Below, in pieces: positions 1 through 18,860 of a stretch of DNA of 19,307 nucleotides. The stretch is taken from assembly GCA_043753995.1 (NCBI GenBank), contig JAYUVP010000191.1:1-19307 (forward strand), in the 5' to 3' direction. Numbering within the stretch: the first letter of the stretch is position 1; every line of letters starts with the position of its first letter. A model generated the notes under the pieces. It was not told the origin of the DNA and did no database searches. It was given only the letters and a program-made list of their open reading frames with translations. Source of the stretch: Fibrobacterota bacterium. Lineage in GTDB: Bacteria; Fibrobacterota; Fibrobacteria; UBA11236. A program made the translations under genes and the position numbers.

Positions 1-1
1 C

Positions 2-1090
2 GGGGCTGCTGGTACTCGGCTCGACATGCTCACCTTCCATGCCAAGGGCGGGGTGAATATGGCCGACAACCATATCCGCATGAATATGGGCGGCCAAATC
101 GGCCAGCACCGGAATTTCTTCAACATTATCCGCGGCTTTCCAGAATACAAGAGCAAGCCCATCGTCATCGGCGAAGCGGACCCGGACGGTTGCGCCGCCT
201 GCCCGACCAGCTCGAATGCGGCCCATGGCTACCGTAACATACCGGTATACGGCGCCTATGTCGCGTCCATGATGAAGCATACCCTTCAGTTGGCCGATAG
301 CCTGGAGGTGAACCTGAAGGGCGTGGTCACCTGGGCCTGGACATTTCCTGGCAGCCCCTATTTTTCAGGCTATCGCGAACTTGCGAATAGCGGAATCCAC
401 AAGCCCGTACTTCAGGCCTTCAAGATGCTGGGAAGGTTGCAAGGCCGACGCATCCCCCTGAAGAGCGACGGGGCCCGAGGGTTGGCGAATATTCTGGCTA
501 GCAGCGTCCGCAATGCGCCCGACATTGACGGATTAGCCTCCAAAACCGAGAAACAGGTCACCGTGCTGCTATGGAATTACCATGACGACGTGGTGCCCGC
601 CTCCGCTGCGAGGATGCATTTGGAAATCACGGTTCCCGCCGGTTTTCCAGCCGAGGTGCGCCTGACCCATTACCGTATGGATAGCACGCGAAGCAATGCC
701 TATTCCGCCTGGCAGAAAATGGGAAGCCCCCAGCCACCCACGGCGGCCCAAATCACCCAGTTGAAAACCGCCATGGCCCTGGAAACCCTGGAGCCACCCC
801 GCCTAATCAAGGTGGATAGAGGCAAGGTCACCGTGGACTTCGATTTCCCCAGGCATGCCGTCTCTCTTATTCTAGTGGAAAACCCAGGGACAACCGGCAT
901 CCGGGCGGATGGCCAACCGCAGGGAAAGGCATCAGCAAACACAGCCTTGCCAGGGGGGAGTCGGCACCACGCCGGCCTATTACCCGTGCCTAAGGCCGGT
1001 GGGTGGAATGTTTTCGATGTTCGGGGGCGAGCCTTGGGGCATTTGAACGGCCCAGACCGAGAAGCAAAGCCGCCCGTAACCGGCGAATGA
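2..1090 (+). CDS. GH39 family glycoside hydrolase (beta-xylosidase-like), 5'-truncated by the window edge, with a basic C-terminal sorting-like tail
   Basis: The frame is open from base 2 (GAAGTRLDMLTFHAKGG), so the ATG at 26 is internal. GH39-type motifs: LDxxTFHAKG, PIVIGEADPDGCAAC (nucleophile Glu), TWAW-F, and HYRMDSTRSNAYSAWQKMGSPQ in the C-terminal beta-sandwich. The tail contains FDVRGR. Confidence 0.88.
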   Translation, partial: GAAGTRLDMLTFHAKGGVNMADNHIRMNMGGQIGQHRNFFNIIRGFPEYKSKPIVIGEADPDGCAACPTSSNAAHGYRNIPVYGAYVASMMKHTLQLADSLEVNLKGVVTWAWTFPGSPYFSGYRELANSGIHKPVLQAFKMLGRLQGRRIPLKSDGARGLANILASSVRNAPDIDGLASKTEKQVTVLLWNYHDDVVPASAARMHLEITVPAGFPAEVRLTHYRMDSTRSNAYSAWQKMGSPQPPTAAQITQLKTAMALETLEPPRLIKVDRGKVTVDFDFPRHAVSLILVENPGTTGIRADGQPQGKASANTALPGGSRHHAGLLPVPKAGGWNVFDVRGRALGHLNGPDREAKPPVTGE

Positions 1091-1130
1091 CCTCTAGGGG
1101 TACCCAGAGGGTTTGCCTAGAAAGCCGCTT

Positions 1131-2165
1131 TTAATTTCGTTGTGACGGCTTTTGCACGATGACGCCATACCACCCAAGGCCGTCATATTCCTGATAACCT
1201 AAGGTGCGCGCAAAGGCGATACATTCACCCTGTTTGTTGGGGTAATACCCCTTGCTGCGGCCGCCAGCATTCAGTGAGAACGGTGTGAGCAAGTCCTTTC
1301 CATCCGATGCCGCGATAATTCTGAGATGGTGATCGAGTAGTAGAACGCGGGTGTATTGCCACTCTTCCGGGGAAAGGTTTGGTTCATTTTTTACGATGAC
1401 CCGCGCTTGCTCATCCCAATCGAAATAAACGCCGAGAGCCCCAAGCACCTTGCCGTCGATTCGGCCCCCTTCGCGAACGGCCGTGGCATAGACGGCGACC
1501 AACTTTCCCTCATGGAAAGTATCGGCGAAAATCTCATCGACGACATATTGATCACCGCTACCGGTAGCCAAGCCACGAATCACCCAAGGAGATTGCGAGA
1601 GATTGGCCCCATTCACCTTGGCAAACTTCTCAGGTTGTGAGCTGGCGACCACCTTGCCTTGGGTATCGACCAAAACGAGGTTCAGGTAAACCGAATAGAA
1701 ACGGTTGATTAGGGAAAGTCTCAAGGCCGCATGCTCTCTGCTAACCTTATCACAAGCTTCTAGGCAACGGTATAAAGAATCGTCGGTGGCCCACCAACGC
1801 ACATCGGCGGTGCGCTCATATAGATTACGCACAATGAGTTGCACCAAGGTTTGAGCCATTTCCGTGAGTCGTTCAAATTCCTTGGTGTCGACCTGTTTTT
1901 TCAAGGTGTCGGTTTGATCTTTTAATTCGGTCAGAACCTTGGTGCGTAATTCCTTTGAATTGACTGCGGCTTGACTTGCGAGAAGCTTCACCTCGGCGGC
2001 CACAACCGAAAAACCCTTCCCCGCCTCCCCGGCGCGCGCGGCTTCGATGGAAGCGTTCAAAGCCAATAAATGCGTTTGGCTGGCGATTTTCTCATTGTTT
2101 TGGGCAAAACTCTCTACTCTTCCCTGAATGTTCTGAATAATATCGGAAATGCTCACCGCACTCAT
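1131..2165 (-). CDS. Soluble methyl-accepting chemotaxis protein: N-terminal MCP signalling hairpin plus C-terminal Cache-like sensor domain
   Basis: MCP tip motif [37 protein letters not shown] near the N-terminus. No hydrophobic TM segment. The C-terminal region has Cache-like features ([20 protein letters not shown]...[17 protein letters not shown]). The start is moved from 2240 to ATG 2165 because GGGAGA lies just upstream. Confidence 0.85.
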
Positions 2166-2730
2166 GATTGTCTCCCTGACCGCATGGATTATAGAGCTTG
2201 GGCGCAAGAAAGGGCAAAGAGAAATCAAATCCCCGTCCACTTAAGGCAGTATAGTGTTCCTTCCAACAAATACTGGGAATGTGATTACTGACTCATATCA
2301 GGGGTTTGTCCGCCATTGGCGCCCCCACTTAGGGGCCTTTGTCGTGCGTTATCGGATCGACTATTCTGGCCTATCCTTTAGGGCGCGCCCGTGCTGGAAG
2401 TACTAGACTTCAGATTTCGGCCCAAGATGTCATGCCTTTTTGAAAAATGCACCGAGTCCTATTCATCGTATTCGGGAGTGTTCTCTACGTCATAGTTTTC
2501 GCCATGACGATAAATAGAATGCTCATCCCATCGGCCCGAGGAGGTATAACTAACCATCCTATCCGACCATTGATAATCAATGATATTTCCATTTTCTTTG
2601 CCCTTGGGGAAGGCGAGGCCGACAGGAGCATCGGAGCAAGGCGGGCCGAGCCTGGGGGGCGTTTGGATGGCCCAGAACGAGAGGCTGAGCCCCCCGTAAA
2701 AAGGGTACACGAACAACGAAGAAAAAGAAG

Positions 2731-3822
2731 TCAGCGAGTCAGCGGCAAACGCCGTCCCGAGAGATCGACGATTCCGTTATGGCCAGGCCTCATGAGAAAA
2801 AAGGCTGCGTCCGCGGTCAAAGACAACTTGGGTTCTCGTCGATTCCTTCGGGTTCTTGGCAAGATGGCTAGCCTGCCGTGCGATGTCCAAAAAGCACCCG
2901 GGGGTATACCCACGGTTGCCATGTAAATATTGTCGCGATTGATGGCCATGGCTAGAATGGATTCCGGCGCTTCGGGGATTTCGCTCCAAGTCAATCCCCC
3001 ATCGCCAGATAGGAATAGATAGTCGCCACCGAAAGAGCCCGATCGGGCCACCGCGAGAAGACCGTCGGAGCTAACCATGTCGCAGATGAAACCGTCCTTT
3101 TCAAAAACGATTTTCTGACCCGGGCTCTTGGACCATGTATTCCCAAGGTCGGGCGAAAAGTGTATGCTGTCATCACTCGCCAACAATAAATTCGTCCCAA
3201 GGATGACCAGGTCCTCGGCCTCTTCATTATCGCCGCTCTGATACGGGATGGCCTTCCAAGTAAGCCCACCGTCTTGGGAGCGAAACAAGGTGCTTGAGCT
3301 GAAGAGACCACCGCCCAGGGCAACAAAAATATTCAACCCAGAAACAGCCAAGCTTTTGACTTTGGACTGGGAAATTCCAGTGGGCCGCGACCATGTGACT
3401 CCCGCGTCGCCGGATATTTGCAGGCCTTCATCGGTACCGGCAAATAACTTTCCGCCATCATAAATTAAGGCATGTATCCATTGATTCTTCAGACCCGGTA
3501 ATAAGCTCCAATTGGCGCCTTGATCGGAGGTGGCATAGATTCCATAGCCCGCGGCTAATACTCGGCTACCCTCGAAAGCAAAGGCATTCGTCGACTCGGT
3601 GGCGAGCGAGGCTGGCGTGGGTTTATAACCCGTTCCATCGGCAGAGAAGGTGTAAATGCCTTTGCCTTGGGTGCCCACATAGACGGTATTTCCGAATACG
3701 GCCATGCTATGGGAAGAGAGTCCACTGGTTCCTTGCACCGGACTCACAGCTCCCCATCCCTCCACTATCGCTAGGGCCATGACCGTGGTTGCGATCCAGG
3801 CTTGTGCAATCCGACTTCTCAT
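2731..3822 (-). CDS. Secreted BNR/Asp-box (WD40/YVTN-like) beta-propeller protein
   Basis: N-terminal signal peptide (MRSRIAQAWIATTVMALAIVEGWG). Five Asp-box repeats: SDQGANW, SGDAGVTW, SQDGGLTW, SPDLGNTW, SGDGGLTW. Basic tail ending VDLSGRRLPLTR. Confidence 0.82.
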   Translation of the reverse strand: MRSRIAQAWIATTVMALAIVEGWGAVSPVQGTSGLSSHSMAVFGNTVYVGTQGKGIYTFSADGTGYKPTPASLATESTNAFAFEGSRVLAAGYGIYATSDQGANWSLLPGLKNQWIHALIYDGGKLFAGTDEGLQISGDAGVTWSRPTGISQSKVKSLAVSGLNIFVALGGGLFSSSTLFRSQDGGLTWKAIPYQSGDNEEAEDLVILGTNLLLASDDSIHFSPDLGNTWSKSPGQKIVFEKDGFICDMVSSDGLLAVARSGSFGGDYLFLSGDGGLTWSEIPEAPESILAMAINRDNIYMATVGIPPGAFWTSHGRLAILPRTRRNRREPKLSLTADAAFFLMRPGHNGIVDLSGRRLPLTR

Positions 3823-3913
3823 GGGACCGTCCTTCGTTCAACAAGGTTAGATGATTGAGCCACGCCATTTGTCGCGAAATATTCAAGTAAGCCTGTATAG
3901 CCTTCGCACCCTC

Positions 3914-5284
3914 TCAGTCGCGGCGCCCGATTTTAAGCAGAGAGAGTGCTGGCCCCGTCATAGCCGTTGTTGCCAGAGCCATCAATACCATCATGGAGAA
4001 AAGTGCGGGCGTAAGGATGCCAAGATCGAGTCCGATATTGAGGACAATGAGCTCCATGAGGCCGCGGGTATTCATGAGGGCCCCCAAGGCAAAACTCTGT
4101 TTCCAAGGTGTCCCCATGAAGCGTGCCGCCAGGCATCCGCCTCCCATCTTCCCCACCACGGCTAAGACTAAAATCAAGGCCGCCAAGCCCCAGTCTTGCG
4201 CCCCATTCAAGAGGCTCAGCTCGGTTCTCAGGCCGGTGGCGGCGAAGAAAATGGGCAGCAAGTAAAGCGAGGCCGAGTATTCGAGCCGCTCTTTGAGAAA
4301 GGCCTTGAGGCCTATATGATCGGGGATGATGGCCCCCGCCAGGAAGGCACCGAATAAGGCATGAATGCCCAGAGTCTCGGTGGCCAGGGCGCTGAGGAAG
4401 AGGCCGATGAGGAGAAGGGTCGCCGTGCCTTTGCCGGGCAGGCCAGGATCCGAGAGCTTGAGCAGCCATCGGCTAAGCAAGGGTCGAATGATATAGAGCA
4501 TGAAAACCACATAGAGAGCAGCGCCCGCCGCGATCCACAAGGCTGACAGGGGACTTTCGGCCCTGGCCACCGCGATGACGACGGCTAGGATGGACCAGGC
4601 GGTGACATCGTCCACGGCGGCGCAGCCCAAGGCCGTGATGCCAAGGGTGCTGCCAGTCAAGCCGCGCTCCTCAAGAATGCGGGCTAGCACGGGGAAAGCG
4701 GTGATGCTCATGGCGATGCCCATGAAGAGGGCGAAGGGCAGGAAGCGCACGCCCTGGGGAGCATGGGTGCGGTAGACCAGCAGGGCCGCGCAAAGTCCTA
4801 GGAAGAAAGGGATGACTATGCTGGCATGGCTTACGAAAAGGGTGGTGCGGGCATGCTTGCGGAGAGTTCCCAAATCCATGTCGAGGCCAACGCCGAACAT
4901 GAAGAGCAGAATGCCCACCTTGCTGAGCAGGGAAAGGTTGGAGAGGCTGGCGGGAGGGAATAAAAAGGCTTCGGCAGCGGGCCAGGCCCAGCCCAGCAAG
5001 GAAGGGCCGAGGAGAATGCCGGCGGCCATTTGTCCCACCACGGCGGGCTGGCCAATCTTGCGGAAGAGATTGCCGCAGAGGAGACAGGCCATCATAATGG
5101 TGACGAGCTGAATGAGTAGGGTAGGCAGGGGTCCCAGGATCATTCCATGGGTGCCAGCTCCTGGTGCCGCAAGACCAGCAACGGAGGGGGTTGGCCCATT
5201 TCCTAGCTGAAGTATGGTCCAGCCGGCAAAACCGAAGACCAGGATCAAAAGGAGATAAGCTGTCATTCCGCGTGTTTTAGACAT
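3914..5284 (-). CDS. Cation:proton antiporter (CPA2 / Na_H_Exchanger, KefB/CHX-like), membrane domain only
   Basis: About 13 hydrophobic segments. Motifs GQPAVVGQMAAGILLGPS, MSITAFPVLARIL, AAVDDV, GIHALFGAFLAG, LPIFF..TGL, GKMGG and MNTRGLMEL. No C-terminal KTN or USP domain. Confidence 0.92.
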   Translation of the reverse strand: MSKTRGMTAYLLLILVFGFAGWTILQLGNGPTPSVAGLAAPGAGTHGMILGPLPTLLIQLVTIMMACLLCGNLFRKIGQPAVVGQMAAGILLGPSLLGWAWPAAEAFLFPPASLSNLSLLSKVGILLFMFGVGLDMDLGTLRKHARTTLFVSHASIVIPFFLGLCAALLVYRTHAPQGVRFLPFALFMGIAMSITAFPVLARILEERGLTGSTLGITALGCAAVDDVTAWSILAVVIAVARAESPLSALWIAAGAALYVVFMLYIIRPLLSRWLLKLSDPGLPGKGTATLLLIGLFLSALATETLGIHALFGAFLAGAIIPDHIGLKAFLKERLEYSASLYLLPIFFAATGLRTELSLLNGAQDWGLAALILVLAVVGKMGGGCLAARFMGTPWKQSFALGALMNTRGLMELIVLNIGLDLGILTPALFSMMVLMALATTAMTGPALSLLKIGRRD

Positions 5285-5455
5285 AATCGGGGTGGAAACT
5301 TAGAAAGGGGCCTTGCGGAGGGTCGGCCTTTTTGTTTGCCGACGGGAAACAGATTAAGTCTTTCCGATAGCCTGAAATGAATATTCTAATGCGATATTTG
5401 TATCAGTAAATCATTTTTCAAGAATGCGCCCGCGGGATCCCAACCCAACTTCACT

Positions 5456-6409
5456 TTGGGCGACCTGCTTTCGGGCCAGGTCATCGTGGCGAACAATCTG
5501 AGTCATTTCGGCAGCCCATTGATGGACCAAGGCAAACAGCATGCCATCCAGGCAGCCATCGAGACCGAGGGGCGCGGCTACCTCGGTTTTCACGCGACCG
5601 CCGACAACCAAAATGAGGGATGGTTTTGGTTGAACCATGTCCTATACCCCTTGAATTTCCGTGGCCACGGCCCGCGCGCGACCGTGCCGGTGTACAAGCA
5701 TTTGGCCGAGGCCAAGCACATCCTCCTGGAGGGCGTCTTGGCGAAGGGGACCACTCTGGCCACCACTCCCGACGAAATAGGCACCGCCGGGAACGAAAAA
5801 CTCTCCTACGTCCCGGTGCCCACTCGCATGATGAGAAATGAGTGTTACAGATTCGGACGCCAAATCGCCGACGACCCGGCCTTCAAGGACAAGGTGACCA
5901 TCCTTCTCAAATTCGATCCGCGTAGCTTAAGCGAGGCTGAGCTGGAAACTCAGTACCGCCGCAAGGGTGGCAATCTATACAGCTACCTCTACAAGGTCGG
6001 CGCCGGAATGACTTCCTACATCTATGCTGGCCATGAAAATGATGAGCTATTGGATCCCAATACCGGCTTCGATGGCGGCGTAGGAGATTTTGACCGCTAT
6101 GTAGCTCAGACTCTCTTTTTCCTGGCGGGTTATGACACCACCGCCTGTGACAATTCGTGCAATGGGCTGCCAGTGATCAATGCTCAGAACCACCTCCCCG
6201 ACCCACCGCCCTTCGACCCTCCGCTTCTCACCCAAAACCCCAAGGCCATATTCTTGGCGAACCAGATCTCCTTCAACGCCCGCGGACTCCTGGCAGGGGT
6301 TTACTTCCCTCAAAACTTGTTTTTCTTCTTGGGTTTCTTCGGCGCGGTTTTCACCTCAACTAAATGGGCATCGAGCTGTGGGCGGCGCCCCTCCCAGAAA
6401 TTCCGGTAA
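5456..6409 (+). CDS. ThuA-like (class I glutamine amidotransferase-like fold) domain protein, probably truncated or degraded at both ends
   Basis: ThuA-type motifs: FTLGDLLSGQVIVANN, GRGYLGFHAT, FRGHG, NECYRF (DEWY-like) and YAGHE. Only a TTG start with no clear RBS. The 3' end overlaps the antisense ArsR gene by 100 nt. Confidence 0.6.
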   Translation: MGDLLSGQVIVANNLSHFGSPLMDQGKQHAIQAAIETEGRGYLGFHATADNQNEGWFWLNHVLYPLNFRGHGPRATVPVYKHLAEAKHILLEGVLAKGTTLATTPDEIGTAGNEKLSYVPVPTRMMRNECYRFGRQIADDPAFKDKVTILLKFDPRSLSEAELETQYRRKGGNLYSYLYKVGAGMTSYIYAGHENDELLDPNTGFDGGVGDFDRYVAQTLFFLAGYDTTACDNSCNGLPVINAQNHLPDPPPFDPPLLTQNPKAIFLANQISFNARGLLAGVYFPQNLFFFLGFFGAVFTSTKWASSCGRRPSQKFR

Positions 6410-6693
6410 TTCTCCAGCCACTCGTTAGCCTCCGCGAGAGGCTCGGCCTCAAGCTTTCGAGGGCGCCGCTGGGCGTCCCGGCCAATGGAAACCAAACCCG
6501 CTTTCTCCAAGACACGGAGGTGTTTGGAGATTGCCGGCTGGGTCATCGCGAAGGGGGCGGCCAATTCGGTGACAGTGGACTCGCCATCCGCCAAATGGGT
6601 TAAAATCGCGCGTCGGGTGGGATCCGCCAGGGCGGCAAAAATGGCGTCCAAGTGGGGTGACGCGAGAGCAAATCCATAACCTATTGGTTTCAT
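6310..6693 (-). CDS. ArsR/SmtB family transcriptional regulator (subtype usually paired with SRPBCC genes)
   Basis: LDAIFAALADPTRRAIL, TVTELAAPFAMTQPAISKHLRVLEKAGLV and WLENYRNFWE are characteristic of this ArsR subgroup. Confidence 0.9.
   Translation of the reverse strand: MKPIGYGFALASPHLDAIFAALADPTRRAILTHLADGESTVTELAAPFAMTQPAISKHLRVLEKAGLVSIGRDAQRRPRKLEAEPLAEANEWLENYRNFWEGRRPQLDAHLVEVKTAPKKPKKKNKF
6678..6689. promoter_or_regulatory. Candidate ArsR autoregulatory operator AACC-N4-GGTT
   Basis: The inverted repeat AACC-TATT-GGTT lies in the first codons of the ArsR gene, just downstream of its predicted promoter. Confidence 0.5.
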
Positions 6694-6704
6694 AACTAAG
6701 TAGC

Positions 6705-6733
6705 AATATATAGCAGTATCATATTACCGTCAA
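6705..6733 (-). promoter_or_regulatory. Sigma70-type promoter of the ArsR gene
   Basis: Minus strand TTGACG (6733-6728), 17-nt spacer, TATATT (6710-6705). The predicted start site is about 5 nt before ATG 6693, so the transcript would be near-leaderless. Confidence 0.6.
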
Positions 6734-6773
6734 AACGCCATCCAACCTGGTATGGCTGGGGTCGCCATGCCCT

Positions 6774-8327
6774 ATGATTTGCGGTGAAACCCTAGCGCCT
6801 ACTGTGAAACTACTGACCCGATACATAAACGTCGACTACGCCTTCTTTCAGAAAGCTATTCCGGTCATTGGCTGGCTGGGTTTGGTGGGCAATTCGTCTT
6901 TCTATGCGATATTGCGTTTCGGATTCAAGTATTGGGAGGCATGGGAGCTGCGTCTGCTGGCCATGCTCTTTTCGTTTTCCCTTGTCTTTTACCCCAAAGA
7001 CAGGACCCTCAAGTCGTGGCAAAAGGCTTATTTCGAATGCGTGCTGGCGTTCATGCTACCTGGCATGTTCACCATCCTCTTCTTACGCAATGGCTGCAAT
7101 ACCTATTGGTTTGCTTCTCTGGTCTTCGCCGGGTTAACCCATGGCCTGATGTCGAAGCCCCAAATCTTTGCCTGGAGCTATTTGCTGGCCGCAGGCACCG
7201 CAACCCTGGAGCATCTCCAACAGTTTCCTGGCAATGGCCCCTTGGTCTTGACCAGCATGCAGGCCCAGCTTATCGCGTATTTCATGGGCATTATCGCCAC
7301 CGGCGTCAAGACGACCATGGAGCTTTCGCATGTCAAAATCATGAGCGCGCAAATCGCCCTTGCCGAAGCCGAGAATAATCTCAAGCATGCTGAAGATATC
7401 CGCATGGCCTACGAAGAGCTGAAGAAGCGCGAAGAGCTCATTCGTGTTTTCGTGCGCCCTTCCTTGGTCGAGGAGATAAGAAGCGGAAAAGATCCTTCGG
7501 TGTTTCAGCCCACCATGCGCAATCTCGCCATTTTATTTTGTGATATACGTGACTTCACGAAATTAACCGAGATCTTGAACCCCTACGAAAAGCAGACCTA
7601 TTTAAATCAGTATTTCACCATGATGACCCATCCCATCGTGGCGAATAAAGGCGAGGTCGACAAAATTATGGGGGATTGTGTCATGGGCATATTCCCTGAT
7701 GGAGAGAGCGCCACCCGAGCGGCCATAGGCATGCGTTTGGAATTGCAGAAGTTCAATCAGAAGATGTATGCCACCGGCCAGCACCTCATCAAGAATGGCA
7801 TAGGCATAGCGAAGGGCGAGGTGATGGTGGGCAATTTCGGGTCTTTCGAAAAACTCGATCGCACCGTTATTGGCGAAGCGGTGAACATTGCCGCCCGGCT
7901 GGAGTCAAAGACCAAGATGTACAACCTCGACACCATCGTCACCGAAGATGTCATTCGCGATATGGGCGAAGCTCCGGCCCACGTGCGCTGGATTGACTTG
8001 GTGCAGGTAAAAGGTTCGACCCGCCGTCTCAAGGTCTATGAAATTTACGGCCACCAACCCGAAGAGGTGCGGCGGTTCAAGGACGAGACGCGCGACTTAT
8101 TCGAAAAGGCGCTTACCATTTATTTCCGCAAGGGATTCAAGGACGCATCCCGACTTTTCAAGGCCATGCTCGAACGCGTGCCACCGCATCGGCACCAGCC
8201 CGGCGAATTGATGGACACTCTCTTGCGATACTATATCGCCCATTGCGATGCCTGGATCAATGACAAGACCGGCTCGTGGGAGCAGATCGAAAAATGGGAT
8301 GGCGTGCATGTCTTTTTCGAAAAGTGA
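6774..8327 (+). CDS. Membrane-bound class III adenylate cyclase with a ~6-TM CqsS/LqsS-like N-terminal sensor domain
   Basis: All six canonical catalytic positions are visible: FCDIRDFT (metal Asp), VDKIMGD (Lys for ATP, second Asp), DRTVIG (Thr, class IIIb-like) and VNIAARLE (Asn, Arg). Also a hydrophobic N-terminus (aa ~28-180), a coiled-coil linker, and a helical C-terminal extension ending WDGVHVFFEK. An alternative start is GTG 6804. Confidence 0.92.
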   Translation: MICGETLAPTVKLLTRYINVDYAFFQKAIPVIGWLGLVGNSSFYAILRFGFKYWEAWELRLLAMLFSFSLVFYPKDRTLKSWQKAYFECVLAFMLPGMFTILFLRNGCNTYWFASLVFAGLTHGLMSKPQIFAWSYLLAAGTATLEHLQQFPGNGPLVLTSMQAQLIAYFMGIIATGVKTTMELSHVKIMSAQIALAEAENNLKHAEDIRMAYEELKKREELIRVFVRPSLVEEIRSGKDPSVFQPTMRNLAILFCDIRDFTKLTEILNPYEKQTYLNQYFTMMTHPIVANKGEVDKIMGDCVMGIFPDGESATRAAIGMRLELQKFNQKMYATGQHLIKNGIGIAKGEVMVGNFGSFEKLDRTVIGEAVNIAARLESKTKMYNLDTIVTEDVIRDMGEAPAHVRWIDLVQVKGSTRRLKVYEIYGHQPEEVRRFKDETRDLFEKALTIYFRKGFKDASRLFKAMLERVPPHRHQPGELMDTLLRYYIAHCDAWINDKTGSWEQIEKWDGVHVFFEK

Positions 8328-8328
8328 T

Positions 8329-9879
8329 TTACCACGACGGTACGCTCAAGACGGTTTGCCCTGAACCCAGGCCCACCCGGCAAATCCAGGGCTTTTTTCC
8401 AATGGCGGACGAGGTGCCGGGCGGAAATCTTATTGGAAGATCCATGCTACCAGAGCCGAGGGCCGGTCGACGGATAACCAGGATGCGTCGCCCCTCGGAA
8501 TCGAAGATTTCCACGGAGAGAATGGCACTGCCGGAGGACTCCTCGGAATGTCGGGGGATTTCCACCCTGAGTAGGAGCTCCCTATCACCCGGAATGAAAG
8601 ATCGGAAAGCAGCGCGGAAGTGCTTTAATTCTGCGGTTCTGGACTTCCCAGACACGGGGACGGGGTTCTGGGTGTCAGGGAGATAGGTCACGTCATCGAG
8701 TTGGATGAAAAAAACCTGGCGGTGGGTGAGGTCGGGGGCGAGTAGGGAGACCTTATTGGCGCCCGGCTGCCAGCGATGGTATTCCTGCCAATAGACATAG
8801 GGGAAGATATAGTCGTCGTCCCCAGTTAAAGTAGTAGGCGACCAGGCAACCCCCTTGCGAGAGCGGTGGAGTTGGTTGGGCGTAGCCGGGTAGGTGCGCC
8901 ATAGGACTTCGGGAGCGCCCCCTGATGCGAGGTACAGAGAGGCATCGGCACCGGTTCCGCTGCTGATGAGTTCCCATGGGCTCCAGCTCACGGTCGTCCC
9001 CCGGGTCCGCGAAAGCACTATGGCCCGAGGCTCCGGGCTGATCTTCTGGCCGGTGACATAGACGGTGTCGTCACTTGCGGCTAATCGGCAATTCACCACC
9101 GACCAGGCTGCCGCGTTCTCAGGGGAGGACTCGGTCCAAGTTGCGCCACGGTTGTCCGAATAGGCAGACCGGAATCCCGGACTCGAGAAACCAACGAAGA
9201 CCCGACCGCCTTGAGAGGTGGTCACCGAGGGGCGCAGGTTTCCACCTCCCAGATCCGAAACCTTGTTGGCATCCCAGGTATTTCCGCCATCGGCGGAAAA
9301 AGCATAATAGGGCTTATTGGCCGATTCGTCGACGAAGGCGACGTGCAGGCCATTGACTCGATCGACATGCAGGAAGGGGCCTCCCGCCGCCGTGGTCTGC
9401 CAGGTCACGACAGATTGCACCAGATGGCGCGCCTCGAACTTGGCCCCGTCGATCGAGACCTTGTGGACGAGATTGGGCGCAGGCCCGTCATAAAAGACGA
9501 CGTGGATGTGATTATGTCCGTCAACGGCAATGGCGGCGCAGTCCCCTTCGCCCGTGGAGAGGGCGGTGTCGTTGATGGGGCCGAGATTCGCCCATTGCGC
9601 ATTCGCGGCCGTCCGCTTCCAGACATTGATTTCATTGCCTCCCCGCATCACCATGTAATAGTTACCCAAGGAATCGCGCGTGAGCGTACGGCCATTGTAG
9701 CTGAGAGGATGCACGCGGGAGGTCGACCAGGTGGTGATGGGTTCGGGGGCGGCGGTCGCCTGCCCAAAGGAGGCTAAAATCAACAGTGTCGCCAGGAATA
9801 AACCGGCGCCCTGAAGGCAGACACTCAAGCCAAAGGCGCGGTCGATGGAGGGTATAGCAAACAGAGTGGATTGCTGCAT
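8329..9879 (-). CDS. Secreted BNR/Asp-box (sialidase-like fold) beta-propeller protein with a C-terminal sorting-like domain
   Basis: ATG 9879 is preceded by AGAGGAGGT. Hydrophobic leader ending ATA-A. Repeated blades (IAVDGHNHIHVVF, LHVDRVNGLHVAF) and Asp-boxes SADGGNTW and SDNRGATW. The C-terminal domain contains VEIFDSEGRR. Its stop is 1 nt from the convergent cyclase stop. Confidence 0.8.
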   Translation of the reverse strand: MQQSTLFAIPSIDRAFGLSVCLQGAGLFLATLLILASFGQATAAPEPITTWSTSRVHPLSYNGRTLTRDSLGNYYMVMRGGNEINVWKRTAANAQWANLGPINDTALSTGEGDCAAIAVDGHNHIHVVFYDGPAPNLVHKVSIDGAKFEARHLVQSVVTWQTTAAGGPFLHVDRVNGLHVAFVDESANKPYYAFSADGGNTWDANKVSDLGGGNLRPSVTTSQGGRVFVGFSSPGFRSAYSDNRGATWTESSPENAAAWSVVNCRLAASDDTVYVTGQKISPEPRAIVLSRTRGTTVSWSPWELISSGTGADASLYLASGGAPEVLWRTYPATPNQLHRSRKGVAWSPTTLTGDDDYIFPYVYWQEYHRWQPGANKVSLLAPDLTHRQVFFIQLDDVTYLPDTQNPVPVSGKSRTAELKHFRAAFRSFIPGDRELLLRVEIPRHSEESSGSAILSVEIFDSEGRRILVIRRPALGSGSMDLPIRFPPGTSSAIGKKPWICRVGLGSGQTVLSVPSW

Positions 9880-9936
9880 TTTACCTCCTCTACGCTTCAA
9901 GGATGTGAGCCAGTTCGCGAATTCACTACGAATGGA

Positions 9937-10503
9937 TCAAAAACGGAGGGCCACCCCATTTGGATGTGCCACCAAGGTCAGGTTGAGCCGTCGTTTTTGC
10001 CGTGCCTGTTGGTTCATTTTGACGGTTGACTTAATGAAAAAGACGGTTGAAATCGCGGTTATCGGAATTCCAATGAGCAATCCCAAAACGTTGACTCCGA
10101 AGGATGTTTGAACCGTGCCAGGCGAATCTTGGGCTCGTCTTTCCGCCTCTTCCTGCGCTTCTATTTGAGTCATCACCGCTCCCACTAGGGTAATCACCCC
10201 TCCCACCACGATTCCAGCAATGGCCACTCCGCGACGCTGCCTATGGAAGGCAATGGAAGAATCCAGTGACTTTGCCAATACACGATTTTTCTCTAAATCC
10301 ACATTGGCTTGATTGGAAGGCTGAAGGGCGGAATCCAGAGGCGCCCCAGAAACTTGAGCGGCGGCGGCAGCTTCGGTACCCGCCCCCTTGGCGGAATCCA
10401 CGCTCACCGTTGTATCCGCGGTACGGGTGGTATCTTGTCCGGTTTGGCCCGACGCCCATCCAACACTTAAGAATAGCACAATCATCACGAATCGAATATT
10501 CAC
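9937..10503 (-). CDS. Hypothetical exported/membrane protein
   Basis: AAGGAG lies 7 nt before GTG 10503 (TTG 10506 is an alternative). Signal peptide, Thr/Ala-rich linker, two Gly-rich hydrophobic segments, and a C-terminus of ...NGVALRF. Confidence 0.75.
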   Translation of the reverse strand: MNIRFVMIVLFLSVGWASGQTGQDTTRTADTTVSVDSAKGAGTEAAAAAQVSGAPLDSALQPSNQANVDLEKNRVLAKSLDSSIAFHRQRRGVAIAGIVVGGVITLVGAVMTQIEAQEEAERRAQDSPGTVQTSFGVNVLGLLIGIPITAISTVFFIKSTVKMNQQARQKRRLNLTLVAHPNGVALRF

Positions 10504-10581
10504 CAATCATCTCCTTGGTTGCAATAATTGGGCATAGATAAATCAAAGACATCCCGTCATCAATATCTCGCGTATGCCAAC

Positions 10582-10611
10582 AAAAAAAATGGGCCCCGAA
10601 AGGCCCATTTT
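10582..10611 (-). terminator. Intrinsic terminator of the PEP-CTERM gene
   Basis: Perfect stem AAAATGGGCC-CCGAAA-GGCCCATTTT (10586-10611) ending in a T8 run on the minus strand, about 25 nt after the stop at 10636. Confidence 0.85.
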
Positions 10612-10635
10612 AATCTCATTTCGGAAATGAAAAAC

Positions 10636-11163
10636 TTAGACCTTCTTTTTTTTGCGGAACCCAACAGCAAGGCCCGTTAAACCGAGACCGAAAAGCGCCA
10701 AGGTGCCGGGTTCGGGAACGGCTTCAGTGCGTTCAACGGAATAGGTGAGGTCGCTGTAGTAAATATCGCCACCGCCATTGTAATCGCGAATAACCTTCAG
10801 ATCATTACGAGCGAAAAATCCTTGATTGAAGGAATTCTTGATATCGGCAATCGTCGTGACATAGCCAGAAATGTTCTGGTCAACAAAAACACCGGTAGTC
10901 GTGTTGTATTCCAAGGAATGCCAAACCGTCGAACTGCCCGATTGAACGAAAGCCAAATCGTAAGTGTTCGTGGTGAGGGTATGAAATGAGAGCGAAAAAG
11001 CGCTCAAATCATTGAAGTCAATGGTCGTGCCATCAAGACCCGAGTCATAGGTTAGGAATCCGGAGGCAGCGGAGCCGAATTCGAAATTCACGGTAACGGG
11101 AGACGCGCTGATGCCGCTGACGAACATGGCGATTGCGGCTGCGGTCAACTTCAGTGTATTCAT
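10636..11163 (-). CDS. PEP-CTERM sorting domain-containing surface protein
   Basis: Signal peptide and a Ser/Thr/Asn-rich body. Canonical C-terminus VPEPGTLALFGLGLTGLAVGFRKKKKV (PEP motif, TM helix, basic tail). RBS AAGGGAG. Confidence 0.95.
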   Translation of the reverse strand: MNTLKLTAAAIAMFVSGISASPVTVNFEFGSAASGFLTYDSGLDGTTIDFNDLSAFSLSFHTLTTNTYDLAFVQSGSSTVWHSLEYNTTTGVFVDQNISGYVTTIADIKNSFNQGFFARNDLKVIRDYNGGGDIYYSDLTYSVERTEAVPEPGTLALFGLGLTGLAVGFRKKKKV

Positions 11164-11234
11164 TTATAACTCCCTTGTTAGTCATCCCAAAAACCAAATC
11201 TTGAATTGAATCTGGCCTCTGTGGGTAACTTGAA

Positions 11235-11251
11235 AGCAAGAGTAGAGCCAA
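11235..11251 (-). promoter_or_regulatory. Sigma54 (-24/-12) promoter of the PEP-CTERM gene
   Basis: Minus strand TTGGC-TCTACTC-TTGCT: GG and GC are separated by exactly 10 nt, about 70 nt upstream of the start codon. Confidence 0.65.
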
Positions 11252-11358
11252 AGCGATTGCAGCGAATTTACACGAATTTAGCCATCCGTATTGAACTGAC
11301 TGTCAAGTTTACCGTCGTCAAACCTTTTTTTATTACGCTAATTTCAAATACGGTAGAC

Positions 11359-11386
11359 AAAAAAAAGAACCCGTTTCCAGGTTCCC
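11359..11386 (-). terminator. Probable intrinsic terminator after the Cys-motif gene
   Basis: Minus strand GGGAACC-TGGAAACG-GGTTC followed by T8, about 50 nt after the stop at 11437. Confidence 0.6.
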
Positions 11387-11436
11387 GTTTCTTTGCTGAA
11401 AATGCAAACACCACCCAAATTGGATGGGAGGCATGC

Positions 11437-11886
11437 CTACATGGCGCAGCCACCCATTCCTTTGCAATCGTTATGGCCTTTACATTCATGCGCCTTACCG
11501 GCCACTTTTTCCGTAGGTATTCCCTTTTTCTTGGCCATCGCATCGAGACTGGCTTGAGTTGCTTTACAACCGCCCTGCCCCTTGCATTCGTTCAAGCCTT
11601 TGCAGGAATGCTTTCCGGCAGCCACAGGAGCCGCGGTTTTGGCCGCAGTCGAGTCTACTTTGACGGATTGAGCTGAGGCCTCAATCGCAGCGGGTTTTGA
11701 TGTCACAGCGTGAGCCGAGTCCACCTTCTTCGCGTGCTTTTTATCATGCTTCTTCGCAGGCTTTGCGCTATCCGAGGTTGCGGCAGGAGCTGCAGCAGCC
11801 TTGATCTCTTCAGCTTGCGCGGATATCGCAACAAGTCCCGAAGCGAGTCCAGCTATAGCCAATTGAGTGAGCAGATTCTTTTTCAT
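11437..11886 (-). CDS. Secreted Cys-motif protein with two HxCKGxNxCKGxGGC repeats; bufferin (BufA2)-like RiPP precursor or metal-binding protein
   Basis: GGAGG RBS, a signal peptide ending AQA, and an Ala/Lys/His-rich linker. Repeats HSCKGLNECKGQGGC (11610-11566) and HECKGHNDCKGMGGC (11490-11446). The ORF is solid; the family assignment is by recalled motif resemblance. Confidence 0.75.
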   Translation of the reverse strand: MKKNLLTQLAIAGLASGLVAISAQAEEIKAAAAPAATSDSAKPAKKHDKKHAKKVDSAHAVTSKPAAIEASAQSVKVDSTAAKTAAPVAAGKHSCKGLNECKGQGGCKATQASLDAMAKKKGIPTEKVAGKAHECKGHNDCKGMGGCAM

Positions 11887-11916
11887 GAGGCCTCCGTGAA
11901 TTATGGAATGAGGAAA

Positions 11917-12237
11917 TTACTTAGCGGCAGGGGCGGCAGCGGGAGCTGCAGGAGCAGCAGCTGCAGGGGCGGCAGGGGCGGCAGGGGCGGCAGGGGCGGC
12001 AGGGGCGGCAGGGGCGGCGGCGGCAGCCTTCTTCACCTTCTTGCTCTTCTTCTTGGCCTTGGTCGTATCGGCAGGAGCGGCAGCAGCATCAGCGGTAGGT
12101 GCGGCGGCAACGGGAGCAGCAGCCACAGGAGCGGCAGCAGCGGCGGGAGCGGCAGCAGCAGCAGGAGCCTTGGCCTCTTCGGCTCCGACAATCATGGCGC
12201 CAACGAGCAAGGTGGTGGCAATAATCTTGATATTCAT
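11917..12237 (-). CDS. Small secreted Ala/Pro/Lys-rich low-complexity protein
   Basis: RBS-like AAAGGGA, signal peptide MNIKIIATTLLVGAMIVGA, and AAP repeats flanking KAKKKSKKVKK. It ends 30 nt upstream of the next gene. Confidence 0.8.
   Translation of the reverse strand: MNIKIIATTLLVGAMIVGAEEAKAPAAAAAPAAAAAPVAAAPVAAAPTADAAAAPADTTKAKKKSKKVKKAAAAAPAAPAAPAAPAAPAAPAAAAPAAPAAAPAAK
11963..12016. repeat. Perfect 9-bp tandem repeat, (GCAGGGGCG) x6, coding Ala-Pro-Ala units
   Basis: Six exact copies read directly from the sequence, in frame within the 11917..12237 gene. Confidence 0.95.
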
Positions 12238-12332
12238 GGTATTCCCTTTGCCTTTGGTAGCTAAGGACCGTCCCCAGCTACACCAAAAGGCGGGGGAAAG
12301 CTAAATCGCCCTTGTTTTTTTGGTAAGACTTG

Positions 12333-15300
12333 TCAAGGTGAATATCCCAAATTAGGTGCCAGCCAACGTTCGGACTCCGCCAAAGAAAGGTCTTTCCGTC
12401 GGCTATACTCCTCCACCTGATCGCGGCCGAGTTTTCCGACACCGAAATAACGCGAGGCCGGATGGGCGAAATAAAGCCCGCTGACTGCCGCGGCTGGCCA
12501 CATCGCAAAGCTTTCAGTCAACTTCAGGGTAATATGCTCCTCGACTCCGAGTTGGCGGAAAAGCAATCCCTTTTCCGTATGATCTGGACATGCTGGATAT
12601 CCAGGAGCTGGGCGTATACCGTGATACTTTTCGCGAATCAAATCGCTTTTTGCCAATTGCTCGTCGGCGGCATGCCCCCAAAATTCTTTGCGCACTCGCT
12701 CGTGGAGGCGCTCAGCCAAGGCCTCGGCCAGCCTATCCGCGAGGGCTTTGGCCATAATGGCATTGTAATCGTCATTGGCTTTCTCATACCGGGCAACTAT
12801 TGGATCCAGGCCAACACCCGCGGTGACCGCGAATCCGCCAACATAATCGGCGATGCCGCTTTCCTTGGTTGCAATAAAATCACTGAGGGCGAGGTAAGCG
12901 CCATCCCCTTCCTTTTCGACTTGCTGGCGCAAGGTGTGAAAAGTGGCCACGACCTGCTTACGCGTTTCGTCGGCATAGATTTCAATGTCATCGCCGACCG
13001 CATTCGCGGGGAAAATTCCAAATACCGCTTGCGCCTTGAGTTCGCCTCCCGCGACGATTTCCTGGAGCATGTGTTTCGCATCGGCGAATAGTTTACGCGC
13101 TTCTTCGCCCACCTTCGCATCTTCCAGGATTTTCGGATACATGCCATGCAATTCCCAGGTTTGGAAAAAGGGCGACCAGTCGATATAGTCGACAAGCTCT
13201 TGCAGGGGATAATCCGCAAAGACTTTAACTCCAATGTTTTTGGGCTTGGTGACGCGACCGCTTTTCGCCTCCTCCACCCAATTGAGACGCAATCCCTTAG
13301 CGCGCGCGTCGGCAAGAGGCAAGAGGCGGCGATCGTTTTGGCGGCTGAGATATTCCTCACGCACGGCATCATAGCGTTTCCGAATCCCTTGCACGAAATC
13401 CGGCTTCTGTTCCTTAGACAAAAGACTTGACACCGTGGGCACGCTGCGGGATGCATCAAGCACATGCACCACGGGATGCTTATAAGCGGGAGCGATTTTG
13501 ACGGCGGTATGAGCCACGGAAGTGGTGGCCCCTCCGATGAGCAATGGGATGGTGAAACCCTGGCGCTGCATTTCCTGGGCCACATAAACCATTTCATCGA
13601 GCGAAGGCGTAATGAGTCCCGAAAGGCCGATGACATCGACTTTCTCTTCACGGGCCCTTTGTAATATGGTTTCGCAATTCACCATCACGCCCAAATCGAT
13701 GACTTGATAATTATTGCAAGCCATCACCACGCCTACGATATTTTTTCCGATATCGTGCACGTCACCCTTCACCGTGGCCATGAGCACCTTGCCCACGGGA
13801 CCTTGATTGGGATTCAGCAATTTGCGCGCTTCGATATAAGGCGTGAGCACGGCCACCGCTTTTTTCATGACGCGCGCGCTTTTCACCACTTGCGGCAAGA
13901 ACATTTGCCCCGAGCCAAAAAGATCGCCGACCACATTCATGCCATTCATGAGCGGGCCTTCGATAATCTCGATGGGGTTCTCGTATTTTTGGCGGGCTTC
14001 TTCGACGTCGACATCGATATAGTCGGTGATGCCTTTCACCAAGGCATGGGAAAGCCTTTGTTCGACGCTTTCCTTGCGCCAAAGACCTTCTTCCTGCTTG
14101 CTGCTCCCGCCCTTGCTGCCCTTGAGGGTTTCGGCATGATTCACGAGTCGCTCGGTGGCGTCGGCACGACGATTGAGAAGCACGTCCTCAACCATTTCCC
14201 GCAAATTCGGTTCGACGGCTTCGTAAATCTGAATCAGGCCAGCATTGACTATGCCCATATCCAAACCGGCGCGAATGGCATGGAATAGAAAGCAGGTATG
14301 CATGGCTTCGCGCACGGGATTATTGCCGCGAAAGCTAAAGCTGATATTACTAATGCCGCCGCTAATCTTGGCGCCGGGCAAATTCGTTTTGATCCAGCGT
14401 ACGGTTTCAATGAAGTCTTTGCCATAATTGGCATGCTCTTCTATGCCAGTCGCTACGGTGAGCACATTGGGATCGAAAATGATGTCTTGGGGCGGGAAAC
14501 CGACCTTGTCGACCAGGATGCGATAACTCCTCTCGCAAATGGCGATGCGGCGTTCATAGCTGTCGGCCTGTCCCTTTTCGTCGAATGCCATGACCACCAC
14601 GGCGGCTCCATAGCGTCGCACTCGATCGGCGCGGTGAATGAAGGCATCCTCACCTTCTTTAAGCGAAATCGAATTGACCACGCCCTTGCCTTGAATATTT
14701 TGCAAGCCCTTTTCGAGCACCGACCATTTGGAGGAGTCGATCATGATGGGACGCGCGGCAATATCCGGCTCGCCGGCGACTAAGCGCAAAAACTTCTCCA
14801 TGGCCGCTTCGGAGTCGAGCATGCCTTCATCCATGTTCACGTCGAAAATTTGCGCGCCGCTATCGACTTGCTGCCGGGCTATGCTCACGCCCTGCTCGTA
14901 ATCGCCAGCAAGAATGGCTTTGGAGAATTTGGGACTACCGGTGATATTGGTGCGCTCGCCCACATTCACGAAATTGGTTTCGGGGCGAATGATCATGGGC
15001 TCTAGGCCCGAGAGCTGGGTAAATTGCGGTACCAGGGGCATGGCGCGCGGAGGGTATTTGGCCACGGCAGTAGCAATGGCTCGAATATGATCGGGCGTGG
15101 TGCCGCAACATCCGCCGACAATATTGAGTAACCCGCTACTAGCGAATTCGTCTAGCAATCCTGCCATATAATCCGCCGAGTGATCGTAGCCACCGAAAGC
15201 ATTGGGCAAGCCAGCATTGGGATGACAGGAAATCGGCACCGGTGCCATTTGCGCGAGTTGCGCGACATAGGGGCGCATGAGCTCAGCCCCGAGGGCGCAA

Positions 15301-16055
15301 TTCACGCCCACGCTGAGAAGCTTGGCATGGCTGATGGAAATCCAAAAAGCCTCGACCGTTTGCCCCGACAAGGTGCGGCCCGACATGTCGACGATGGTGA
15401 CGGATACCATGATGGGCACGCGCATTTTACGCTCAGCAAAGACATTCTCGACCGCGAATAAGGCGGCCTTGCAATTCAAGGTGTCGATAAAGGTTTCGAG
15501 CAATAGGGCATCCACCCCGCCATCGAGCAAACCTCGGGCTTGCTCCTCAAAAGCAGCCACCAATTCATCCCAGGACACAGCGCGAAAGCCCGGATCATTG
15601 ACATCGGGTGACATCGACAAAGTCCGCGTCGAGGGGCCGATGGAACCCGTGACAAAACGGGGCTTGTCCGGCGTCTTTTGCGTCATGGCCACGGCTTCTC
15701 GCTTCGCCAGGGCTGCGCCCGCCTTATTGATTTCATAAACCAAATCACTCATGCCATAATCCGCCATGGAAATGGCATTGGCATTGAAGGTATTGGTCTC
15801 CAAAATATCGGCGCCGGCTTCAAGATAAGCGCGGTGTATGCCGCCAATGATTTCAGGCTGGGTGATAACAAGCAAATCATTATTGCCCTTTAAGTCATGA
15901 GGCCAATCCTTGAATCGATCGCCACGATAATCAGCATCTTGCAACTTATGCCGCTGTATCATGGTTCCCATGGCCCCATCCAGAATCAAAATGCGCTTCT
16001 GGATTTCAGCTTCAATCGGTGCCAAATTCGCTTGCTTCATACTATTCTCGCTCAT
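12333..16055 (-). CDS. metH: Cobalamin-dependent methionine synthase
   Basis: 1240 aa with all modules: Hcy-binding (LDGAMGT, NCALG, GGCCGT), pterin-binding (VGERTN, DVNMDEG), B12-binding ([27 protein letters not shown]) and activation domain ([14 protein letters not shown]). Confidence 0.99.
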
Positions 16056-16108
16056 GTTGACTTGTCGTACCCGGTTTTACCCAAAACTCATTTTTCACTT
16101 ATCCACTT

Positions 16109-17101: not shown

Positions 17102-17109
17102 GACCTAAT

Positions 17110-17139
17110 TATATCAATATATCGCGATAGATTGATATA
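17110..17139. promoter_or_regulatory. 30-bp palindromic operator, candidate SahR binding site(s)
   Basis: TATATCAATATATCGCGATAGATTGATATA has 14 of 15 complementary pairs and lies 8 nt upstream of ATG 17101. Confidence 0.8.
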
Positions 17140-18794: not shown

Positions 18795-18860
18795 AGAGGC
18801 ATAGGTAAATTCAAACCGGCTAAACTTCGATGCCAAGCCTCCCCTTTGGGAATACTTTGC

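Follow-up and report, generated by a model that had tools for sequence, protein, structure and literature searches.

A CqsS-like six-helix membrane sensor joined to a class III adenylate cyclase in a member of the Fibrobacterota

Introduction

Whether the six-transmembrane-helix (6TM) domains of adenylate cyclases, those of the nine mammalian enzymes included, are receptors has been an open question for decades, and the main support for the receptor idea has so far come from engineered chimeras between the quorum-sensing receptor CqsS and a cyclase. A natural gene now raises the same question. It lies in a 19,307-nucleotide stretch of DNA from a Fibrobacterota bacterium (contig JAYUVP010000191.1 of assembly GCA_043753995.1, positions 1 to 19,307, hereafter the window) and encodes P0001, a membrane adenylate cyclase of 517 amino acids (aa). 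An initial annotation had likened its N-terminal domain to the receptors CqsS and LqsS, and had proposed an orphan receptor. Is this likeness real, and which signal, if any, would such a protein report as cyclic AMP (cAMP)?

In the excerpts available of Beltz et al. (2016, eLife, PMC4821796), CAI-1 acts through the CqsS 6TM domain of an engineered chimera on its class III cyclase; a CLANS survey of 1,616 six-helix modules linked the CqsS cluster to cyclase anchors only weakly and locally, and these excerpts report no natural fusion. A 2025 FEBS Journal review (PMC12414865) speaks, in its accessible part, only of synthetic chimeras, called 'synthetic cyclases', and of proof-of-concept constructs. 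Our own full-text literature search, with most subscription journals outside its coverage, found no natural CqsS-type sensor-cyclase fusion. The window protein may be a membrane adenylate cyclase of natural origin in which the anchor serves as the receptor.

Results

Relationship of the N-terminal domain to CqsS

The gene divides into the parts listed here, in which TM stands for transmembrane helix and AF2 for AlphaFold2.

6774..8327, + strand: whole gene of P0001, 517-aa membrane adenylate cyclase with a CqsS-like sensor (translation of the open reading frame, ORF; stop codon counted in)
6774..6857, + strand: cytoplasmic N-terminal segment, aa 1-28, with the family motif N-x-D-Y (D21, Y22)
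6858..7328, + strand: predicted six-helix transmembrane sensor domain, aa 29-185 (AF2, hydropathy, CqsS homology)
7107..7118, + strand: W112 to S115 (outer end of TM4), which pair in the alignments with CqsS W104/S107 in V. cholerae numbering
7272..7298, + strand: TM6 positions I167, M171, G172 and A175, aligned with CqsS F162, F166, G167 and C170 (provisional mapping)
7329..7511, + strand: signalling helix in the cytosol that prolongs TM6, followed by a short handle helix (aa 229-236) before the cyclase
7512..8051, + strand: class III (IIIb-like) adenylate cyclase catalytic domain, aa 247-426
8061..8324, + strand: conserved helical C-terminal domain of 88 aa (aa 430-517)

The alignment with CqsS proposed in the initial annotation was checked against a real CqsS. 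All the motifs quoted from P0001 are present in the translation: GWLGL (33-37), WEAWELR (54-60), LVF (70-72), YFEC (86-89), MLPGMF (94-99), LFLRN (102-106), NTYWFAS (109-115), H122 and LIAYFMGIIA (166-175). The reference CqsS was a 690-aa ORF convergent with a cqsA-like ORF in the Vibrio campbellii record NZ_CP050465.1 (2.06 Mb, filed as a plasmid), reached by a tblastn search of the plasmid collection with the genome's own CqsA-like protein, described below. Pfam finds HisKA, HATPase_c and receiver domains in this ORF, and when read from its GTG start it carries W109, S112, F165, F167, F171 and F175. The available part of PMC3376566 gives F175 for V. harveyi, and W104, S107, F160, F162, F166 and C170 for V. 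cholerae. The V. campbellii numbering equals that of V. cholerae with an offset of five, and also fits the V. harveyi F175. Since its domains and residue numbering match the published positions, we take the ORF to be a genuine CqsS.

Residues 1-206 of P0001 matched this CqsS in BLASTP with 53.1 bits (E 1e-12, 24% identity over 174 columns). A hidden Markov model (HMM) made only of those sensors of the window's phylum that are linked to cyclases or to LytS-type kinases, CqsS-like kinases being kept out, scored 46.8 bits on CqsS residues 16-159. The alignment of these sensors was also compared by hhalign (global option) with a CqsS-group alignment, made of V. campbellii CqsS and the 13 representative-library proteins most like it; the match was significant, with a probability of 99.88% and an E of 3.4e-31 over 194 columns. 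In the reverse direction, the CqsS-group HMM was run with filters off against all six-frame ORFs of the genome of at least 100 aa. Among these 15,184 ORFs the window ORF came first (62.7 bits, E 3.1e-17), its two paralogues ranked next (50.2 and 40.4 bits), and nothing followed until 17.8 bits. The proposed likeness is thus upheld, and we conclude from these comparisons that the 6TM domain at the N-terminus of P0001 and the receptor domain of CqsS/LqsS are truly homologous. None of the outputs that the Pfam scan finds in V. campbellii CqsS, i.e. HisKA, HATPase_c and receiver, is found by it in P0001.

At the level of residues, the regions best conserved with CqsS are TM1-4, including a Trp/Ser pair. 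W112 (codon beginning at 7107, as annotated) and S115 pair with V. campbellii W109 and S112, i.e. V. cholerae W104 and S107, in all four independent alignments, as had been proposed. According to the part of PMC3376566 available, the ligand's C3 head group is recognised by W104 and S107 in V. cholerae, and CqsS and LqsS have common ligand-binding motifs in TM1-3 and discriminate head groups in TM4. The register of TM6 is less firm. The HMM-to-sequence alignment pairs F160 with Q165, F162 with I167, F166 with M171, G167 with G172 and C170 with A175, which is exactly the replacement of F162 and C170 by Ile and Ala first suggested, whereas realignment by hhalign moves TM6 by four residues. We therefore regard the TM6 mapping as likely but provisional. 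LqsS likewise departs from CqsS at the TM6 positions that act as gatekeeper and set tail length (PMC3376566, same part).

Models of the sensor and its stalk

An AF2 model of aa 1-206, built on a 25-sequence alignment (A2), had a mean pLDDT (predicted local distance difference test) of 93.4 and a pTM (predicted template modelling score) of 0.85. It places the helices at 29-50 (TM1), 57-71 (TM2), 81-105 (TM3), 110-126 (TM4), 129-150 (TM5) and 155-185 (TM6), joined by short loops of 2 to 9 residues. Computed hydropathy and loop charges put both termini of the domain in the cytoplasm. Ahead of TM1, a helix is predicted at aa 7-17, aa 1-15 being of low confidence, and D21 is nearly invariant in A2. 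The full-length model, built on an alignment of 19 cyclase-type sequences (A3), had a mean pLDDT of 87.2 and shows TM6 and the stalk as one unbroken helix, aa 155-226, with high confidence. Across the 19 members of A3, R60, P96, N106, W112 and G124 are invariant.

The C-terminal domain, with model helices at 430-451, 455-466 and 483-496, is conserved in all cyclase-type relatives, P470, H472 and D481 being invariant in A3. It has no Pfam family (best DUF6950, E 0.14) and no solved relative.

The catalytic half

The initial annotation had read the output as a catalytically complete class III cyclase, and this is borne out. PF00211, the sole Pfam match in the protein, covers residues 247-422 with 56.6 bits against a cut-off of 21.9. 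By sequence, two photoactivated cyclases, OaPAC and bPAC, are the closest solved relatives (E 7e-28, the alignment starting near residue 206), and Foldseek matched the catalytic half plus stalk to them with E 9e-16 and a root-mean-square deviation of 2.3 Å. D257, K297, D301, T364, N371 and R375 are the same as in OaPAC and invariant in all 19 members of A3. We take D257 and D301 to hold the metals, K297 and T364 to contact the substrate, and N371 and R375 to serve the transition state. With all six catalytic residues present in the sequence, the cyclase is, as far as these residues tell, catalytically complete. A Lys/Thr substrate pair is typical of ATP-using class IIIb enzymes; guanylate cyclase activity was set aside, as this pair points to ATP.

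A CqsA-like synthase in the same genome

No CqsA/LqsA-type synthase lies in the window, as the initial annotation had stated. A search of the genome's aminotransferase-fold genes for cqsA homologues found one, on contig C114 at 7955-9172. Among NCBIfam models, NF005526 ('alpha-hydroxyketone-type quorum-sensing autoinducer synthase') fits it best, with 297.9 bits vs 232.8 for BioF, and the true BioF of the genome is a separate gene. V. campbellii CqsA gave 186 bits with the C114 gene and 79.5 with BioF, the C114 gene being its reciprocal best hit. In the plasmid collection, the best matches of the C114 protein are CqsA-type: a Cupriavidus protein (35.5% identity, E 2e-54), a Streptomyces protein annotated cqsA and two Vibrio records, for one of which (V. 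campbellii) a convergent CqsS gene was found.

The synthase belongs to a cluster that runs over two contigs of the window's genome (G000).

G000:C114 5257-10041 joined to G000:C85 4682-6571 (loci L046 and L048): methyl-accepting chemotaxis protein (MCP), receiver, synthase, receiver, convergent GAF histidine kinase
L046 7192-7893 and 9227-9898: the two receiver-domain proteins flanking the synthase

The end of C85 joins the end of C114, because the GAF kinase gene is split across both (residues 12-642 at the C85 end, 698-726 at the C114 end). The receiver proteins have an N-terminal domain of 95-100 aa with no Pfam family and are conserved with the synthase across the phylum (orthologues in L064-L067, L069, L051 and L062). 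One weak PDB match was found for them, 6sy9 'Response regulator' (E 8e-4), presumably LqsR of Legionella.

At E <= 1e-60, the synthase has an orthologue in 14 of the phylum's 296 genomes, and the sensor domain is present in 11 of these 14. In the 13 genomes other than the window's, the synthase stands in the contexts below; in five of them a sensor-cyclase lies on the same contig.

G258, G263: sensor-cyclase adjacent to the synthase
G248, G076, G016: sensor-cyclase on the contig, at about 2 kb, about 3 kb and about 8 kb, respectively
G286, G287, G288: hybrid kinase convergent with the synthase, as in the classical cqsA/cqsS layout; sensor domain present
G285, G289: convergent hybrid kinase, its N-terminus beyond the fetched stretch
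G256: contig ends at the synthase
G015, G278: nothing within 1.5 kb

The cqsA-paired kinases of the phylum carry the same sensor branch, with 35-40 bits to the cyclase-type profile. At one such locus, two CqsA-like genes stand in tandem beside a single sensor hybrid kinase (locus L068, G288:C268, 1987-3252 and 3427-4719).

In G258 the genes run cyclase, receiver, cyclase, synthase, receiver, GAF kinase. The cyclase that adjoins the synthase, P0003, has 67.7% identity with the window protein and resembles it more than it does the two paralogues of that protein, and the second cyclase is the orthologue of the paralogue on C283. Judged by this orthology, the window gene is a dispersed member of what is one cluster in G258. 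Because its own genome holds a synthase and its G258 orthologue adjoins one, the window receptor is probably not an orphan, contrary to what had been proposed. In the 17 sensor genomes in which no synthase was detected, listening without producing is possible.

The sensor is a module of a large family

Three paralogues in the genome share this architecture of sensor, cyclase and C-terminal domain; one is the window gene (contig C191), and the others lie on two further contigs.

G000:C235 11600-13132 (L002 1501-3036): paralogue
G000:C283 2801-4372 (L003 1447-3021): paralogue

Their sensors are 27-31% identical to one another and the full-length proteins about 50%. Diverged sensors on a conserved remainder suggest, at the level of sequence, that ligand specificity has diverged too.

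With a three-sequence profile, the sensor domain was found in 28 of the 296 genomes of the phylum. Twenty-five ORFs from these genomes were scanned: 17 are cyclases, 3 are hybrid kinases with the architecture of CqsS, 2 are LytS-type histidine kinases and 3 have no Pfam match, although one of these three still matches the cyclase half of P0001 at 263 bits. The count of 28 and one of the 17 cyclase architectures rest partly on an unpublished genome (G254), which was kept out of the alignments. A word-based homologue search with aa 15-200 returned only 4 close relatives, all cyclases of 505-510 aa. A search for related loci among genome contigs gave 79 matches to the pattern, of which none could be confirmed, and two sources name members of the sensor family as proteins of Fibrobacteria or Fibrobacterales metagenome-assembled genomes.

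Beyond the phylum the picture widens. The A2 profile, run against 1.84 billion representative proteins, hit 560 clusters at E <= 0.001, 133 at <= 1e-10 and 37 at <= 1e-30. Of the listed hits, 118 had at least 330 aa and 32 were shorter; the outputs, determined in 93 of the 118, were 26 hybrid kinases, 22 other histidine kinases, 17 cyclases, 9 GGDEF proteins, 3 SpoIIE phosphatases, 3 LytS-type kinases, 1 Ser/Thr kinase, 1 protein with Hpt only and 11 in which no family was found. None of the database names of the hybrid-kinase and cyclase hits is CqsS, and most are unnamed metagenome proteins. In P0033, a Ser/Thr protein kinase of the representative library, the sensor lies at the C-terminus (298-489), the reverse of the order in the other architectures seen.

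A quick maximum-likelihood tree of 101 sensor domains was made (3 of 104 rows were dropped, as their sensor match covered fewer than 140 profile positions; the root is arbitrary). V. campbellii CqsS falls in a 15-row clade with a support of 100 and a long stem that excludes P0001, so that the window sensor stands as a homologue of CqsS and not as its orthologue. Over this tree the output labels change at least 40 times. What had looked like a one-off fusion is better described as one use of a modular input domain: on the profile and tree evidence, the sensor belongs to a large superfamily, and CqsS proper forms a single branch of it. The sensor is also carried by a second kind of cyclase (P0022, P0027, P0054, P0065, P0069 and P0103; 339-469 aa, PF00211 at 162-225 bits). 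As some of these adjoin the Vibrio CqsS clade in the quick tree, the sensor appears to have joined class III cyclases more than once.

Pfam and NCBIfam gave no family for aa 1-200 of P0001, even at E <= 10, and no Pfam model covers the sensor region in CqsS itself or in any member tested, which may explain why such fusions went unnoticed. Membership of a MASE family was set aside. In an Atlas feature search, a minority of look-alike clusters were labelled MASE11, MASE2, MASE6 or MASE7, labels that come without alignment or E-value and that the Pfam scan does not back.

Comparison with other six-helix anchors

The predicted sensor plus stalk was aligned exhaustively with the structures of 48,161 chains, and exactly three reached Z >= 8: the 6TM diguanylate cyclase ImcA of P. 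aeruginosa (8wcn, Z 11.4, 192 residues), bovine AC9 (6r3q, Z 10.9, 188 residues) and human AC5 (8sl3, Z 8.7, 197 residues), values to be read with the caution that in helical bundles a Z below about 13 may reflect a mere common arrangement. All three are six-helix anchors of nucleotide cyclases. M. tuberculosis Cya (Rv1625c, 7yzi) reached Z 6.5 and rank 28; an anchor of its type was set aside. Foldseek of the sensor model against the PDB gave nothing at E <= 0.001, the best match being the AC9 transmembrane domain with E 0.18. The sensor profile had no hit at E <= 10 among all PDB sequences, meaning that the sensor has no solved homologue there. Judging from the models, we regard the likeness to the 6TM domains of AC9, AC5 and ImcA as one of resemblance, not homology.

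Neighbouring genes and possible origin of the sample

The genome is metagenome-assembled, 97% complete with 1.25% contamination. The stretch is present in two sediment-metagenome DNA runs of one study, from which it may stem, and no RNA run was listed. The other genes of the window are these.

26-1090: glycoside hydrolase GH39
1131-2240, - strand: MCP with a dCache domain
3914-5284, - strand: Na+/H+ exchanger
6310-6693, - strand: stand-alone ArsR-type regulator, divergent from the cyclase
8329-9900, - strand: BNR-repeat protein
10636-11163, - strand: small PEP-CTERM protein
12333-16055, - strand: MetH
16109-17101, - strand: ArsR-type helix-turn-helix fused to an S-adenosylmethionine-dependent methyltransferase domain
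17634-18878, - strand: glycoside hydrolase family 8 (GH8)

The ArsR-methyltransferase fusion gene lies directly downstream of the GH8 gene, on the same strand, and upstream of MetH. The glycoside hydrolase genes fit a polysaccharide-degrading sediment bacterium.

Discussion

What could the cyclase be listening to? We lean, if only slightly, to the answer that a cognate hydroxyketone-type signal is converted to cAMP by this membrane cyclase. The scheme that we infer, from the ligand and its binding through dimerisation and the direction of regulation to the downstream path, starts from five observations: the sensor is homologous to that of CqsS, the catalytic set is intact, TM6 continues in the model as one helix, the genome has a synthase, and synthase and cyclase genes adjoin in relatives. 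Class III cyclases work as head-to-tail dimers with two active sites, and P0001 would be a homodimeric enzyme of the inner membrane whose six N-terminal helices form a receptor of CqsS/LqsS ancestry that binds a ligand. This ligand would most likely be a small, lipophilic autoinducer and probably an alpha-hydroxyketone or amino-ketone, the product of the CqsA-like, acyl-CoA-dependent, pyridoxal-phosphate-type C114 protein of the same genome. It would partition into the membrane and bind inside the helix bundle, where its head group would be read by W112 and S115 at the outer end of TM4 and by TM1-3. Binding would shift TM6, and with it the cytosolic helix of roughly 40 residues and the handle, so that the geometry of the catalytic dimer would change and the rate of cAMP synthesis would rise or fall with it. 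This path from TM6 to the cyclase is the one that works in the engineered CqsS-Rv1625c chimera, in which CAI-1 controls the cyclase. The cAMP would then be read by the cNMP (cyclic nucleoside monophosphate)-binding proteins of the genome, which has six genes with such a domain, or, more speculatively, by the GAF histidine kinase encoded with the synthase and the two receiver proteins. A full circuit, in which the signal of the CqsA-like synthase, or variants of it, feeds three paralogous 6TM cyclase receptors answering with cAMP and the GAF kinase and both receivers decode it, is more doubtful than this core and should be taken as tentative.

A number of points weigh against a cognate hydroxyketone. 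The window cyclase sits mid-contig among unrelated genes and not beside the synthase; as the two genes are not adjacent here, the link between them rests on orthology and binning. The synthase itself scores under the curated cut-off of NF005526 (297.9 vs 428 bits), and in 17 of the 28 genomes with the sensor no CqsA-like hit reaches E <= 1e-60. The quick tree places the window sensor not in the Vibrio CqsS clade but next to P0008 (support 98), in company with cyclase and hybrid-kinase members, and by the HMM alignment the gatekeeper phenylalanines of CqsS TM6 are absent, aliphatic or small residues standing in their place. With sensors as diverged as theirs, the three paralogues need not share one ligand. 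Finally, the genome has a hybrid kinase (G000:C210 23239-25068, + strand) with an H-box, HATPase and receiver and a polytopic N-terminus that is weakly CqsS-like (17.8 bits with the CqsS-group profile, E 0.0018 in the genome), and this kinase could be the real, classical partner of the synthase.

Several of these points would fit as well with a CqsS-superfamily receptor for another membrane-soluble or lipid-derived signal, or for a state of the membrane, which has nothing to do with the CqsA-like product and is reported as cAMP. It is unlikely that all of 560 clusters with such varied outputs sense hydroxyketones, and the place of the window sensor in the tree, its differing TM6 specificity residues, the strong divergence of the paralogue sensors and the want of a synthase both in the window and in those 17 genomes point the same way. 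Three things speak against such a receptor: the G258 orthologue sits between a receiver gene and the cqsA-like gene, the Trp and Ser that read the head group are kept, and the phylum's cqsA-paired kinases bear the same branch of the sensor. We consider another signal unlikely, while taking it seriously. The synthase-free window and the 17 relatives in which no synthase was detected also make room for the idea first attached to this gene, that of an orphan receptor eavesdropping on the hydroxyketones of other species; a genome that carries its own CqsA-like gene, and an orthologous cyclase that adjoins one in G258, make this improbable.

It could also be argued that the six helices bind nothing, and that they are an anchor and dimerisation device whose likeness to CqsS reflects the shared ancestry of a scaffold. 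Most bacterial 6TM cyclase anchors are without known ligand, and the fold does resemble those of ImcA, AC9 and AC5. An anchor, however, has no need of invariant polar and aromatic residues in or at the ends of its helices, such as R60, N106 and W112. Nor does it call for sensors that diverge fast while the whole proteins stay about half identical, which is the pattern of changing specificity, or for a repeated genomic pairing with a signal synthase. This explanation seems very improbable to us, and a receptor for a cognate hydroxyketone-type signal is the one that we retain.

The gene family would then be the natural counterpart of the chimeras, a receptor domain of known ligand class wired to a cyclase. 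In several genomes the cyclase is encoded beside the enzyme that should make its ligand, which opens a direct test with genes of non-pathogens. Were the full circuit true, it would be a natural proof of a much-debated idea, namely that class III adenylate cyclases receive ligands through their six-helix anchors. In wider terms, the CqsS sensor is, on our profile searches, one branch of a large modular family that lacks a Pfam model, and hydroxyketone-type signalling may extend well past the Proteobacteria, into Fibrobacterota of sediments.

Five known kinds of system can be set beside the window protein. With CqsS of Vibrio and LqsS of Legionella it shares a homologous six-helix N-terminal receptor with short loops and the same topology, and in relatives of the window gene the sensor is likewise paired genomically with a CqsA-type synthase. 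It differs in its output, which is a class III adenylate cyclase instead of a histidine kinase, in a sensor identity of about 24%, and, in the provisional register, in the replacement of the TM6 phenylalanines and C170 of CqsS. The lqsA-lqsR-lqsS and cqsA-cqsS clusters resemble those described here in that the synthase is flanked by receiver proteins with a 6TM receptor gene alongside, and some published clusters of this type also contain an lqsR homologue (PMC3376566, in the part available). In G258, G263 and G248, however, the clustered receptor is a cyclase, a GAF histidine kinase is also part of the cluster, and the receiver proteins have a 95-aa N-terminal domain of no known family. Among cyclases, OaPAC and bPAC share the catalytic half, including the helical stalk and the handle, with identical catalytic residues, but their sensor is a soluble BLUF light domain where that of the window protein is a membrane domain; the 6TM anchors of ImcA, AC9 and AC5 are the best fold matches, with that of Rv1625c ranking lower, yet none has a detectable sequence relationship with the sensor. 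Closest in design are the CqsS-Rv1625c and CqsS-AC2 chimeras, in which, as far as the accessible excerpts describe them, a CqsS-type 6TM domain is fused, where TM6 ends, with a dimeric class III cyclase. These are laboratory constructs with a class IIIa catalytic domain, whereas the window gene belongs to a natural family, is IIIb-like, and has its own long stalk helix and an extra C-terminal domain.

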